From positions 192,001 to 256,000 of the forward strand of contig CP084167.1 in the NCBI GenBank assembly GCA_021513715.1: a stretch of DNA of 64,000 bases, given 5' to 3'. The translations under genes were made by a program, and so were the position numbers. Positions within the stretch are counted from its first letter, which is position 1. Each line of letters begins with the position of its first letter. This stretch comes from Candidatus Heimdallarchaeum endolithica (GTDB taxonomy: Archaea > Asgardarchaeota > Heimdallarchaeia > Heimdallarchaeales > Heimdallarchaeaceae). Below the pieces are notes generated by a model. The model did not search any database and was not told the origin of the DNA. It saw only the letters and a list, made by a program, of their open reading frames with translations. This document shows, piece after piece, positions 56,194 through 63,598 of the stretch.

Positions 56194-57732
56194 ATGAAAC
56201 AAACTTTAGAACTATATTTTGTTACAAGCGGAGAATTACCTAAAGAGAGTATAGAAGATTTAAAACAGTTTATTTTGAAATATGAGCAAGATCTTAATTC
56301 TAAGCGCCCTAAAGGAAAATTCAACATTGAACTTTCCGAGATAAAAGATAAGAAAATATTTCTGTTACTCAATTCAACAGAATCATATGCTCCACACACT
56401 ATTGTTTTACGAATGAGAAAACAGTTAGCTCAAGAGATAGGTAAGAAATACAAAATTGGTCTAAGAGGATTTAAATTTACTAAATATCAAATAGAGAAAA
56501 AACTTAAACTTGAACCAAAGAGAGAATTTACTTTGCCTTTAACCTCAAAACTGGATTTTTTCAAGAAAGAAGATGAACCTTGGGTAAGAATAGAAATAGA
56601 CCCTGAAATTGAAGAGGATTTTGTTGAAAAAGGAGCAATAGAACGAATATTAAGAAGAATAAATGATAAAATATCAAAAGATTATCATGGAGCCAAAAAA
56701 GAACACCATACTGTTGCTTGGTACTCTGGAGAAAAAAATTTGCTAACTTCTAAGAATCCTACAAAAATTCTCGAAAAAGAAGGATGGATTAAAAGAACAA
56801 ATTATAGAAATCAATGGATTTTAACTCCCTCTATCACTGCAGTCGTTGAAGCGATAAAGAAAATAATGGTTGACCACATATATACTCCACTTAATTATCA
56901 GAAAATGATGATACCTAAACTGGTTGACTGGTCTATATGGCTTCGCTCTGGACATGCAGAAGGTATGTTTCAAGGGGGTTTTGAACCTTACTTTGTTGTT
57001 CAACCAAAAAGCGCCAGCCCAGAATATTTTGAGGAAATAGCTGACTATATAACAATAACAAAAACAATTCCTGAAGATAAACTATACGAAAAAATTACGC
57101 CCCCAATTGGAGGATTATCATATGCTCAATGTCCACCTTTTTGGGCTTGGCTTCAAGGAAAAACAATTGCAAAAGATAGCTTACCAATCCTAGTTTATGA
57201 TTGGAGTGGACCAACATATAGATACGAATCTGGTTCTGCTTATGGTTTTGAAAGAGTAGACGAATTGCACAGAATTGAAACTCTGTTTATTGGCACTCCT
57301 AAGCAAGTAAAAGAAGTGGCAACTGAAACAAGAAAGAAATTGAGAGAAGTTTTTGATAAAATCTTTGATTTAGAAGTAAGAGAAGCAAAAGTGATGCCTT
57401 GGTGGTTAGAACAATCTGCAAAAGATGAAGATGAAGAAGAAGATATGCTTGTTGGTACTATCGATTTTGAAGCTTATATGCCTTATAGGGGTTCAAGAGA
57501 TGAAAGTGAATGGCTAGAAATCCAGAATATATCAATTATAGGAGACAAATATCCAAGAGGTTTTAGTGTAAAAACTGAAGGAGGAAAAGATCTTTGGTCA
57601 GGTTGTGGCGGAGGAAGCTTTGAGCGATTTATCACTGCCTTTGTTTCTCAAAAAGGAATAAAAATTGATGAATGGCCTGAACCCTTCCTTAAATATTTAG
57701 ATAATATCCCCGAACCTCCCAAATTCCTTTAA
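56194..57732 (+). CDS. serS: Serine--tRNA ligase, methanogen-type (type 2)
   Basis: Long N-terminal domain; YAQCPPF, SGPTYRYE...ERVDELHRIE, WLEIQN, WSGC.G (Cys/Glu/Cys Zn ligands of type-2 SerRS). Confidence 0.9.
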   Translation: MKQTLELYFVTSGELPKESIEDLKQFILKYEQDLNSKRPKGKFNIELSEIKDKKIFLLLNSTESYAPHTIVLRMRKQLAQEIGKKYKIGLRGFKFTKYQIEKKLKLEPKREFTLPLTSKLDFFKKEDEPWVRIEIDPEIEEDFVEKGAIERILRRINDKISKDYHGAKKEHHTVAWYSGEKNLLTSKNPTKILEKEGWIKRTNYRNQWILTPSITAVVEAIKKIMVDHIYTPLNYQKMMIPKLVDWSIWLRSGHAEGMFQGGFEPYFVVQPKSASPEYFEEIADYITITKTIPEDKLYEKITPPIGGLSYAQCPPFWAWLQGKTIAKDSLPILVYDWSGPTYRYESGSAYGFERVDELHRIETLFIGTPKQVKEVATETRKKLREVFDKIFDLEVREAKVMPWWLEQSAKDEDEEEDMLVGTIDFEAYMPYRGSRDESEWLEIQNISIIGDKYPRGFSVKTEGGKDLWSGCGGGSFERFITAFVSQKGIKIDEWPEPFLKYLDNIPEPPKFL

Positions 57733-58903: not shown

Positions 58904-59845
58904 TTGATGTCAATTGATGAGTACCTAGACAGTTTATTATCTGAAGGATCTTCCCCTACAAAAACTGCAATCGCAAAATTAACTAGACTACTTGAAAATT
59001 TTGGAAGTATTATGATTAAATCTACAGAAAGAATTGAAGATGCTATTAATGAATTAGATGCAAGAATAACAGCTTTAGAAAATAAATTAGGAGGAGCACC
59101 AGGAGGAGGAATGAGGATGCCTAGTGCTCCAAGTATAGGAGGAGGTACACCAAGTCCTTCAATACCTTCTGCACCTAACTTGAGTTCTGGACCAACTTCA
59201 GGACCAAATTTAGGAGGGGGAGGTACCCCAGCTCCCAATCTAAGTGGAGCTCCTGCACCAGCACCAAATCTAGGAGCAGGACCAGGTTCGCCTGGATTTG
59301 CAAGTGAAATAGCTAATGCTGCAAAATCTTTACAAAAAGCTCCTGTACAACAATCACCAGCCCCCGGCGGACCAGGACCTATGGGAGGTGGAGGAGTAGG
59401 ACCATTAGGTGGACCAACAGCATCAGCGATTTTGGAAGCTAAAGCAAAATTACAAAAAGCTCCTGTACAACAATCATCAACCCCCGGCGGACCAGGACCT
59501 ATGGGAGGTGGAGGAGTAGGACCATTAGGTGGACCATCAGCATCAGCGATTTTGGAAGCTAAAGCAAAGTTAAAGAAAGTTGATCCTGATGCTCATAAGA
59601 AGGAGAGAGAAGAAGCAGCACAAGTATCAAGACCTCTTTCTCCACAACAAGCATTACTCTCTGAGGTTAAAGCAGCTCAACAAAAGAGATCTCAACGAAT
59701 GGAAGAATCAGAAGAAGCTAGTGTAGTATCAGAACCTACTCCAGCTACTCCAAAGAAATCAACAAAACAAATGAAAGAATCGCTTCAAAATGAATTAAGA
59801 GCAGCTTTCAGTAGTTTATTAAATGATGATGAAGAAGAAAAATGA
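58904..59845 (+). CDS. Pro/Gly-rich protein with N-terminal coiled coil, tandem WH2-like motifs and acidic C-terminus (candidate actin regulator)
   Basis: Heptad region IEDAINELDARITALENKL; P/G-rich linkers; helix + L(Q/K)K(A/V) motifs x3; C-terminal amphipathic helix then DDEEEK. Confidence 0.65.
   Translation: MMSIDEYLDSLLSEGSSPTKTAIAKLTRLLENFGSIMIKSTERIEDAINELDARITALENKLGGAPGGGMRMPSAPSIGGGTPSPSIPSAPNLSSGPTSGPNLGGGGTPAPNLSGAPAPAPNLGAGPGSPGFASEIANAAKSLQKAPVQQSPAPGGPGPMGGGGVGPLGGPTASAILEAKAKLQKAPVQQSSTPGGPGPMGGGGVGPLGGPSASAILEAKAKLKKVDPDAHKKEREEAAQVSRPLSPQQALLSEVKAAQQKRSQRMEESEEASVVSEPTPATPKKSTKQMKESLQNELRAAFSSLLNDDEEEK
59330..59569 (+). repeat. Intragenic tandem duplication, 2 x 120 bp (40 aa)
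   Basis: 59330-59449 and 59450-59569 differ at about 4 positions. Confidence 0.95.
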
Positions 59846-62194: not shown

Positions 62195-63598
62195 TTGTTT
62201 AATTCCACAGATTGTTGTTTATGGGTGAATTTAATGGAGTTTCGAAAGAGGTATAAAGCATATTTAAGAAAAGATATTGAAAAAATAGCAGAAGAGAGGA
62301 ATTTTCCTCAAGAAGTTATAGAAGAGATTAAACTTCTATCTCTTGTTTTTCCTTTTAAAACAAACAATTATGTTATGGACGAATTAATTGATTGGGAATA
62401 TTATAAATCAGACCCTACTTTTCTAATAAATTTTCCTCAGAAAGAGATGCTTCCTCCAAATGTCTATAATAGATTAAAAGATATTTATTTAAAAGGAAAC
62501 AAGGAAGAGCTTTTTCGCTATATTCACCAGATACACTTCGAACTTAATCCTCATCCAGCAGGACAACTTCAATATAATATTCCCCAATTCCAAGGAGAAA
62601 TAATAGAAGGAATTCAACATAAATATAGAGAAACAGCATTAGTCTTTCCTATTCAAGGTCAAACATGTCACGCATACTGTACTTTTTGTTTCAGATGGCC
62701 CCAATTTATTAAAGAAAAAGAGTGGAAGATGTGTTTACGAAATCCAGATAAGCTTGTAGATTATTTACAAATGCATCAAGAGGTTCAAGATCTCCTCATC
62801 ACTGGTGGAGACCCTATGATTATGCAAGCCAATGTTCTAAGGAGATATATTGACCCCATCATTGAAGCTGATATAAAACATCTTAAACGAATAAGAATAG
62901 GTTCAAAGACGCTAAGTTACTGGCCTTATAGATATTTAAGCGACAAAGACCATGAAGATATTTTAGATCTTTTTTCTGAAATTGTTGAAAACAAAAAACA
63001 TTTAGCTTTTATGGCTCATTTTAATCACCCTAATGAGTTAAAGACAGAAGCTGTAAAGGAAGCAATAAAAAGAATTTTGAAGACTGGAGCTGTGATAAGA
63101 ACGCAATCACCAATTTTGAAACACATAAATGACTCTCCTGAAGTATGGTCAGAAATGTGGATCAAACAAGTAAACCTAGGAATGATCCCTTACTATATGT
63201 TTATTGCCAGAGATACAGGGGCAAGACATTTTTTTGAGCTTCCTTTATTTGATGCATGGAAAATTTATATAAAAGCTTACAGTTCAGTTTCAGGTCTTTC
63301 AAGGACAGTAAGAGGACCAGTTATGAGTTCTTTATATGGAAAAATCCATGTCCTAGGAGTAAATAAACTAAACAATAATGAAGACGTATTTGTTTTAAGA
63401 TTCATTCAAGCTCGTAACCCTAATTGGGTAGGAAAACCTTTCTTTGCCAAGTTCAATAAACAAGCAACTTGGATAGATCAGCTTGAACCCTTATTCGGAG
63501 ACAAATTCTTCTTTGAAAAAGAAAAATACTTACATGCATTTGAAGAAGATTTAGAGGCTGCAATAGTTAAAGATACAGTTACAGAAGATGAAACATAA
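62195..63598 (+). CDS. KamA-family radical SAM aminomutase-like protein (likely start MEFRKR at 62234)
   Basis: QHKYRET, CHAYCTFCFR, TGGDP, HFNHPNEL, PYYMF. Confidence 0.88.
   Translation: MFNSTDCCLWVNLMEFRKRYKAYLRKDIEKIAEERNFPQEVIEEIKLLSLVFPFKTNNYVMDELIDWEYYKSDPTFLINFPQKEMLPPNVYNRLKDIYLKGNKEELFRYIHQIHFELNPHPAGQLQYNIPQFQGEIIEGIQHKYRETALVFPIQGQTCHAYCTFCFRWPQFIKEKEWKMCLRNPDKLVDYLQMHQEVQDLLITGGDPMIMQANVLRRYIDPIIEADIKHLKRIRIGSKTLSYWPYRYLSDKDHEDILDLFSEIVENKKHLAFMAHFNHPNELKTEAVKEAIKRILKTGAVIRTQSPILKHINDSPEVWSEMWIKQVNLGMIPYYMFIARDTGARHFFELPLFDAWKIYIKAYSSVSGLSRTVRGPVMSSLYGKIHVLGVNKLNNNEDVFVLRFIQARNPNWVGKPFFAKFNKQATWIDQLEPLFGDKFFFEKEKYLHAFEEDLEAAIVKDTVTEDET

Follow-up and report, generated by a model that had tools for sequence, protein, structure and literature searches.

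A near-universal coiled-coil protein family of Asgard archaea with candidate VASP-like actin-binding helices

The gene at 58904-59845 of the window, the whole 64,000-nucleotide stretch of archaeal DNA analysed here, encodes the long form of a protein family present in nearly all Asgard archaea, mostly in single copy, and comprising a coiled coil, a disordered arm and two kinds of conserved helical motif. We propose, with a probability of roughly one half, that these proteins may act as oligomeric, VASP-like actin binders or adaptors whose flexible arms present short actin-binding helices; the oligomeric state, the binding of actin and the activity are what we infer from the sequences. Asgard archaea possess actin filaments and crawl with dynamic protrusions. 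Profilins and gelsolins have been named as their main actin regulators, while neither a nucleation machinery nor formins or Ena/VASP proteins are known from them (PMC9433394, PMC13716822) and the nucleation machineries have been stated to be undiscovered (PMC9433394). A single-copy gene with VASP-like motifs in about 95% of Asgard genomes offers an inexpensive and direct way to ask whether a factor of this kind is older than the eukaryotes. Should its partner be something other than actin, the protein would still merit identification, as a core Asgard component that lacks annotation, carries an invariant docking helix and is also found fused to GTPases. New in this work are the parsing of the motifs, the scored comparison with VASP including the motif spacing, and a negative co-immunoprecipitation (co-IP) check.

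Architecture and distribution of the family

The ORF 58904-59845 (+) reads as 313 aa from a TTG codon and as 312 aa from the ATG at 58907, its second codon, which agrees with the homolog starts and is the likely start of the 312-aa long-form protein (P0001). The ORF and all the motifs listed in the preliminary description were recovered in the order given there, and the Asgard origin it had suggested is borne out by the homologs, which carry the name Heimdallarchaeaceae; the genome is one 3.33-Mb contig. The elements are as follows, with the basis of each in brackets:

58904..59845 (+), whole ORF, long form of a pan-Asgard coiled-coil/Pro-arm/end-helix family (homolog profile searches)
58913..58942 (+), short N-terminal amphipathic helix, aa 3-12, kept in long and short forms (alignment, AlphaFold2)
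58961..59089 (+), coiled coil, aa 19-61 (AlphaFold2; best database matches mostly trimeric coils)
59090..59296 (+), arm rich in Pro and Gly, aa 62-130, disordered, containing short repeats of PNL type and no adjacent prolines (AlphaFold2, composition)
59297..59341 (+), type-I repeat 1, helix + LQKA, aa 131-145, WH2/GAB-like (alignment, profile)
59330..59579 (+), tandem duplication of 120 bp, recent, 2.1 copies at 95% identity (origin of repeat 2)
59420..59461 (+), type-I repeat 2, helix + LQKA, aa 172-185 (duplication product)
59540..59581 (+), type-I repeat 3, helix + LKKV, aa 212-225 (alone among the three in having a strict L-basic-basic-V signature)
59585..59626 (+), charged helix, aa 227-240 (conservation among Heimdallarchaeaceae)
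59642..59692 (+), type-II helix, inner copy, aa 246-262, ending in KR, FAB/C-like (profile)
59693..59761 (+), linker, acidic then Pro/Thr, aa 263-285 (alignment)
59762..59821 (+), type-II helix, terminal copy, aa 286-305, counterpart of the pan-Asgard short form's end helix (most conserved stretch)
59822..59842 (+), short acidic tail, aa 306-312, lacking Trp (sequence)

AlphaFold2, run with 15 homologs, placed helices at aa 3-12, 19-61, 131-143, 172-183, 212-222, 227-240, 246-269 and 286-311, joined by low-confidence linkers with no compact fold (pTM 0.20) and with about half of the chain disordered. The N-terminal coiled coil proposed earlier is supported by the second of these helices and by coil matches in the databases. 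The helices formerly called a fourth WH2 motif and a C helix lie at aa 248-261 and 289-305, followed by the acidic tail at 307-312. The linker at aa 263-285 carries an acidic run followed by Phe in many homologs, the Phe being absent from the Heimdallarchaeum protein. As the preliminary description had cautioned, the long-form protein has no C-terminal Trp and no long poly-Pro: it contains neither Trp nor a Pro-Pro dipeptide, and all 15 close homologs lack Trp. The longest Pro run is 1 in this protein, 1-2 in close homologs and 4-7 in many short forms, those of Lokiarchaeia having true polyproline (runs of 4-7 Pro).

Of the 30 genomes of Heimdallarchaeaceae, 26 contained the gene according to a profile built from its close homologs, which also gave weak matches in other classes. 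Iterating the search led to a short form of 130-200 residues with a short helix, a coiled coil, a Pro-rich arm and an end helix, whose profile matched 172 of 189 Asgard genomes that were at least 90% complete. Seven of the genomes missed by this profile hold the long form, so that at least 179 of the 189 encode a family member, mostly as a single copy per genome. All named matches to the family are from Asgard archaea, and the databases label its members hypothetical; our literature searches by topic and accession found no description of the family, many subscription papers lying beyond their reach. Features in the ESM Atlas provided a lead linking the two forms; the atlas contained unnamed Asgard clusters only, all structural matches having TM < 0.35, and Foldseek with the short-form model returned no match. 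The N-termini of the long and short forms aligned with an hhalign probability of 97.9 (E 6.6e-13, 57 columns), which for a coiled coil is weak evidence taken alone. The short-form profile retrieved long forms (P0157, P0182) from 1.84 billion proteins, and the end helix of the long form is near-identical to that of some short forms. Judged on these alignments, the coil at the N-terminus and the end helix are homologous between the two forms. In sister families, second paralogs (L068:4630-4959, L069:4222-4602, L070:4430-4897) retain the coil and Pro arm, with a short PPKL/PKF tail taking the place of the end helix; two of them adjoin a Rab-like GTPase gene.

The end helix follows the consensus P-x-S-x-R-x-x-x-M-x-E-L-K-x-L-F-x-K-R (core RxxxMxELKxLFxKR), with an invariant Glu and a near-invariant Leu-Lys across the phylum. 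The long-form protein has two copies (aa 246-262 and 286-305), both scoring above 99.998% of the background, so the former fourth WH2 motif and C helix represent one motif type, and the segment at aa 248-261 is an end-helix copy, not a fourth LKK repeat. Every conserved motif of the family is an amphipathic helix, type II ends in basic residues and about half of the chain is disordered, features that would also suit helices binding membranes or each other in a tethering or condensate scaffold with no specific protein ligand. We regard such a scaffold as unlikely: the AlphaFold2 monomer models (pTM 0.20 and 0.40) show no fold-back, and conservation of the Glu without exception, and of the Leu-Lys nearly so, points to a specific protein partner and not to a bilayer. 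In another reading, the end helix would serve as a MIM1-type motif for the MIT domain of Vps4, in an ESCRT accessory protein. It does follow a flexible arm at the C-terminus, with an LxxxFxxL spacing resembling that of MIM1, but the family has Ala or Leu where MIM1 is defined by an Arg ahead of its second hydrophobic residue, and no ESCRT genes were recognised among the recurring neighbours, which makes this identity highly improbable. Elsewhere in the genome, a protein with a coiled coil, Pro/Thr repeats and a short terminal helix (C1:1817238-1818014) is encoded two genes from a UEV/Vps23-type, ESCRT-I-like gene (C1:1819421-1820083).

The helix-LKKx repeats and the WH2 and WASP-family tests

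In the alignment of 15 homologs, most of which share 36-45% overall identity, the invariant positions are L142, K144, L222, K224, D226, E253, K260, R261 and the greater part of aa 285-305; the LxK motifs, whose loss in homologs had been named beforehand as grounds for rejection, are thus conserved at L142/K144 and L222/K224. A simple repeat pattern had four matches in the 1.0 million residues of the genome's ORFs, three of them in the long-form protein. Repeat 2 lies within the 120-bp tandem duplication (59330-59579), which is absent from the near-identical protein P0002, so that two repeats are the norm in the family. Type-I repeats number two to three in Heimdallarchaeaceae and one to three in other families of the order; a further family of Heimdallarchaeia has one repeat per protein, and most short forms have none. 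The LKK repeats are thus a later addition, the end helix being older. Their arrays have one to three copies with a period of 28-40 residues, as WH2 arrays do. Family-wide, the Leu and one Lys are conserved, most repeats read LKKA, LQKA, LTKV or LKSV, and 6 of 40 carry the strict L-basic-basic-T/V signature (as given in PMC9433394). A second protein of the same genome (C1:707608-708951) has about nine 28-residue helix + LKKV/LKPV-like repeats and no Pfam match. Its frame stops at 448 aa, beside transposase-like genes, and its relatives, at about 900 aa, have a C-terminal half that is a long helical-repeat region; it was found in 8 of 61 genomes, within its own family only, one relative adjoining a small-GTPase gene.

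The preliminary description had proposed a WASP/WAVE/WASH-like candidate with three or four WH2-like motifs. Three helix-LKKx repeats do exist, one with the strict signature, but as WH2 motifs they found no support: the Pfam search it had proposed gave no match at the gene, in its own genome or in five related genomes with LKKV/LKKA arrays, even at E 10, and none of 41 repeats matched PF02205, a model of low power for motifs this short. Motif profiles retrieved no WH2 peptide from the PDB, and both gave only chance-level matches in PDB and Pfam, e.g. the twinfilin N-terminal helix and a plastin EF-hand, under default filters that were unable to find even the VASP FAB. No WH1, WHD or WAHD regulatory domain was matched at the N-terminus in Pfam or PDB. 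The PRD-WH2-C-A order proposed earlier likewise did not hold, there being no acidic-Trp end and no polyproline in the long form, and the supposed C element being the family end helix; an internal acidic run with Phe occurs in some homologs only, and no terminal acidic-Trp region was found.

The coiled coil matched the Pfam model CCDC53 (PF10152) at aa 22-66, with 25.5 bits against a cut-off of 24.6, over model positions 5-49 of 147, and 7 of the 15 close homologs matched at E<=1. Homology to CCDC53 was rejected: 100 Asgard genomes gave two weak matches, neither over the cut-off nor identified as a family member, and the coil fits the trimers of haemagglutinin HA2, reovirus sigma-1 and GCN4 at least as closely as CCDC53. 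We judge the match to be that of a generic coiled coil, and the coil itself is probably trimeric. Since there is no WH2 match, the CCDC53 match was not reproduced and the acidic-Trp motif is lacking, as is Pro-Pro, membership of the WASP/WAVE/WASH group fails; by the tests run on its sequence, the long-form protein is not a member.

The actin and profilin that had been expected of an Asgard genome are represented here by a conserved-cleft actin and a profilin-like gene, together with gelsolin and ARPC4-like genes. The actin matched the PDB entry 'HC1 actin' at E 1.5e-196 and eukaryotic actins at about 1e-160, and keeps, at the positions known from actin, the cleft and acidic pair that bind such motifs. 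The genome also encodes one divergent actin-related protein (Arp), a two-domain gelsolin and an ARPC4-family protein (C1:33248-33730, 161 aa), which is over the Pfam cut-off (E 3.6e-9), lies far from both actin genes and has counterparts in two further genomes (G066, G303). A profilin-like ORF (C1:1344112-1344525) has a weak, profilin-looking match to Loki profilin (E 0.03), and the Pfam profilin model had no match in the genome. A true WASH/WAVE-type nucleation-promoting factor, its coil ancestral to the CCDC53, BRK1 and WASH coils and its C-terminal part activating a primitive Arp complex, would draw on the divergent Arp, the ARPC4-family gene, the CCDC53 match and the helix, acidic run and Phe of many homologs. 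It is nevertheless very unlikely, given the near-absence of CCDC53 matches among the 100 genomes, the equal or better fit of the coil to other trimers and the lack of Trp; moreover, no eukaryotic-looking full-length match was seen among the sequences inspected from the best 150 of 1.84 billion proteins, and Lokiarchaeum (L.) ossiferum has the short form and no ARPC4 match.

Throughout Heimdallarchaeaceae the gene is flanked by a threonine aldolase gene upstream and a beta-CASP nuclease gene downstream, with other neighbours elsewhere, and no cytoskeletal or actin genes adjoined the family gene at the loci examined. Two genes upstream, the window encodes a methanogen-type seryl-tRNA synthetase (56194-57732; Pfam tRNA_bind_4 and class II core). 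A radical-SAM protein at 62195-63598 is, to judge from its CxxxCxxC context, of the lysine-2,3-aminomutase type.

Comparison with VASP and the question of the partner

Human VASP carries a GAB at 223-239, a FAB at 259-278 and a tetramerising coil at 343-380 (PMC10340426). The GAB and FAB sequences from that paper were scored against profiles of the two motif types, the end-helix profile being ungapped and built from 83 Asgard end helices only; the comparisons were chosen post hoc, after the likeness had been seen, and the background was an archaeal proteome. On the end-helix profile the FAB reached 24.0 bits, more than all 934,431 windows of the proteome and more than the long-form protein's own end-helix copies (17.0 and 14.3 bits); none of 20,000 shuffles attained this score, and 20.2 bits remained after the nine most FAB-like profile rows were dropped. 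The GAB scored 20.4 bits with one gap on the type-I profile, a value reached by none of 1,500 shuffles and none of 1,500 random 17-mers, random peptides attaining 10.8 bits at most. The distance from the last repeat Leu to the helix Glu (L222 to E253) is 31 residues, with 30-32 in the family and 31 in VASP (L235 to E266); in other families of the order it is 19-23. At PDB scale, HMMER gave E 2.5 for the FAB and E 87 for the GAB, no better than chance matches, and an EVH1 domain was matched in neither Pfam nor PDB, the N-terminus being all helical. The likeness to VASP is measurable, although not significant at the scale of a database, and supports a protein that may work like VASP and not membership of its family.

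The family's L. ossiferum orthologue, UYP45916, is flanked by UYP45915 and UYP45917; as the upstream gene corresponds by mass to GNAMCCOK_02218, UYP45916 is GNAMCCOK_02219. In the proteome its mean log2 value is 18.47, above the 17.38 of profilin Pro2 (bioRxiv 2025.11.30.690169). It is not among the Lokiactin co-IP rows listed, with ratios from +10 to -1.06 and 841 further rows in the table (bioRxiv 2025.11.30.690169 supp. 2), and so, as far as those rows go, was not enriched with Lokiactin. Within the same limits this result weighs against stable Lokiactin binding by the short form; the type-I repeats are outside its scope. Profilin Pro1 was not enriched in that experiment either (ratio 0.31; bioRxiv 2025.11.30.690169). 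The short form of two Loki genomes (L102:3537-4154, L103:4667-5284) lies immediately behind an Elf1-like gene; the mild enrichment of Elf1-like protein among the listed rows (ratio 1.36) is a sign of background there. A co-IP-enriched 38 kDa 'Arf' was considered as a carrier of the module and discarded, the 38.12 kDa candidate having an unrelated roadblock-like tail.

In many Lokiarchaeia, Arf/Rag-like GTPases carry the whole coil, Pro-arm and end-helix module as a C-terminal fusion (examples being P0086, P0133, L199, L204, L209, L213, L214 and L253-L265), with up to four fusions per genome and three in tandem in one of them (G169). The end helix alone is also found behind a Rab-like domain, and it terminates membrane proteins that have Pro/Thr arms. 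Possible membrane-bound relatives are two proteins, one of the same genome (C1:1958282-1959175) and one at L125:67-1905, which are anchored in the membrane and combine a coil and a Pro/Thr arm with a terminal helix of similar pattern (LRxEMLxEL). The GTPase fusions and the similar helix on membrane proteins indicate a mobile docking unit, whose partner may be actin or another protein. A general docking adaptor with a non-actin partner, in which the coil anchors the protein to itself or to copies fused to GTPases while a conserved Asgard protein recognises the end helix as a short linear motif, e.g. of small-GTPase signalling or membrane remodelling, would account for these fusions, for the solitary end helices and for the missing enrichment of the short form in the co-IP rows listed. 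It leaves the added helix-LKKx arrays and their VASP-like spacing unexplained, however, GTPase coupling is compatible with actin binding, and the co-IP also missed Pro1, its listed rows omitting 841 of the table. We consider this adaptor a real but not a likely possibility.

Proposed mechanism and relation to known systems

If the VASP-like reading holds, the coiled coil would bundle three chains into a trimer, each type-I repeat (helix + LKKx) would hold G-actin in the barbed-end cleft, as WH2 or the VASP GAB does, and the basic type-II helix would bind the filament or the cleft, like the VASP FAB or the arcadin-2 end helix. Six to nine clustered monomer sites beside filament-binding helices could then bring about nucleation, elongation or bundling independently of Arp2/3, much as the EVH2 module of Ena/VASP or the tandem-WH2 nucleators do. 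The short form, with one type-II helix and, in Lokiarchaeia, true polyproline, would be the ancestral minimal version, and the GTPase-fused copies may couple the module to a switch through the shared coil. Heimdallarchaeia are the class closest to eukaryotes. More speculatively, and with the odds against it, the family might represent an archaeal forerunner of the eukaryotic GAB-FAB/WH2-C module: a trimeric, Arp2/3-independent nucleator or polymerase, which would have acquired its tandem G-actin sites in Heimdallarchaeia and be linked to small GTPases through the shared coil.

The WASP-family VCA region and CCDC53 resemble the Asgard protein in the order of coil, Pro-rich region, WH2-like repeats, amphipathic basic helix and acidic stretch, and in the weak CCDC53 match. 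It differs from them in lacking a WH2 match, the acidic-Trp motif and WH1, GBD and WHD domains, and its acidic stretch is not terminal. The tandem-WH2 nucleators Spire, Cobl and VopL/VopF share the two to three helix-LKKx repeats, the disordered arm and the oligomeric scaffold, whereas the Asgard repeats have no WH2 score and were added to an older module.

Among archaeal proteins, arcadin-2 of Pyrobaculum binds the crenactin groove with an end helix on an unstructured linker (PMC5173319, PDB 5LY3). The two have in common a conserved C-terminal helix on such a linker, docking in an actin groove being a feature of arcadin-2; its core is different, its gene lies beside crenactin and it depolymerises filaments, and the likeness drawn here is one of architecture. 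Asgard gelsolins have a WH2-like linker in 2DGel and a domain X in 1DGelX (PMC7444086, PMC9433394). No other Asgard proteins have had a WH2-like motif described, and domain X is also a predicted coiled coil, but the family protein has no gelsolin domain. Equating domain X with the family module was rejected, as gelsolin tails of five genomes did not match the family profiles.

Ena/VASP has no database-level homology to the Asgard protein, whose coil is N-terminal and probably trimeric where that of VASP is C-terminal and tetramerising, and which has no EVH1 domain, no polyproline in the long form and an extra terminal helix. Its GAB-like repeat is two residues longer, occurs in one to three copies and has a helix that runs directly into the Leu. 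Both proteins combine a Pro-rich arm, a helix followed by L-basic-basic-V, a basic helix 31 residues further on and a coil, oligomerising in VASP and probably so in the Asgard protein.
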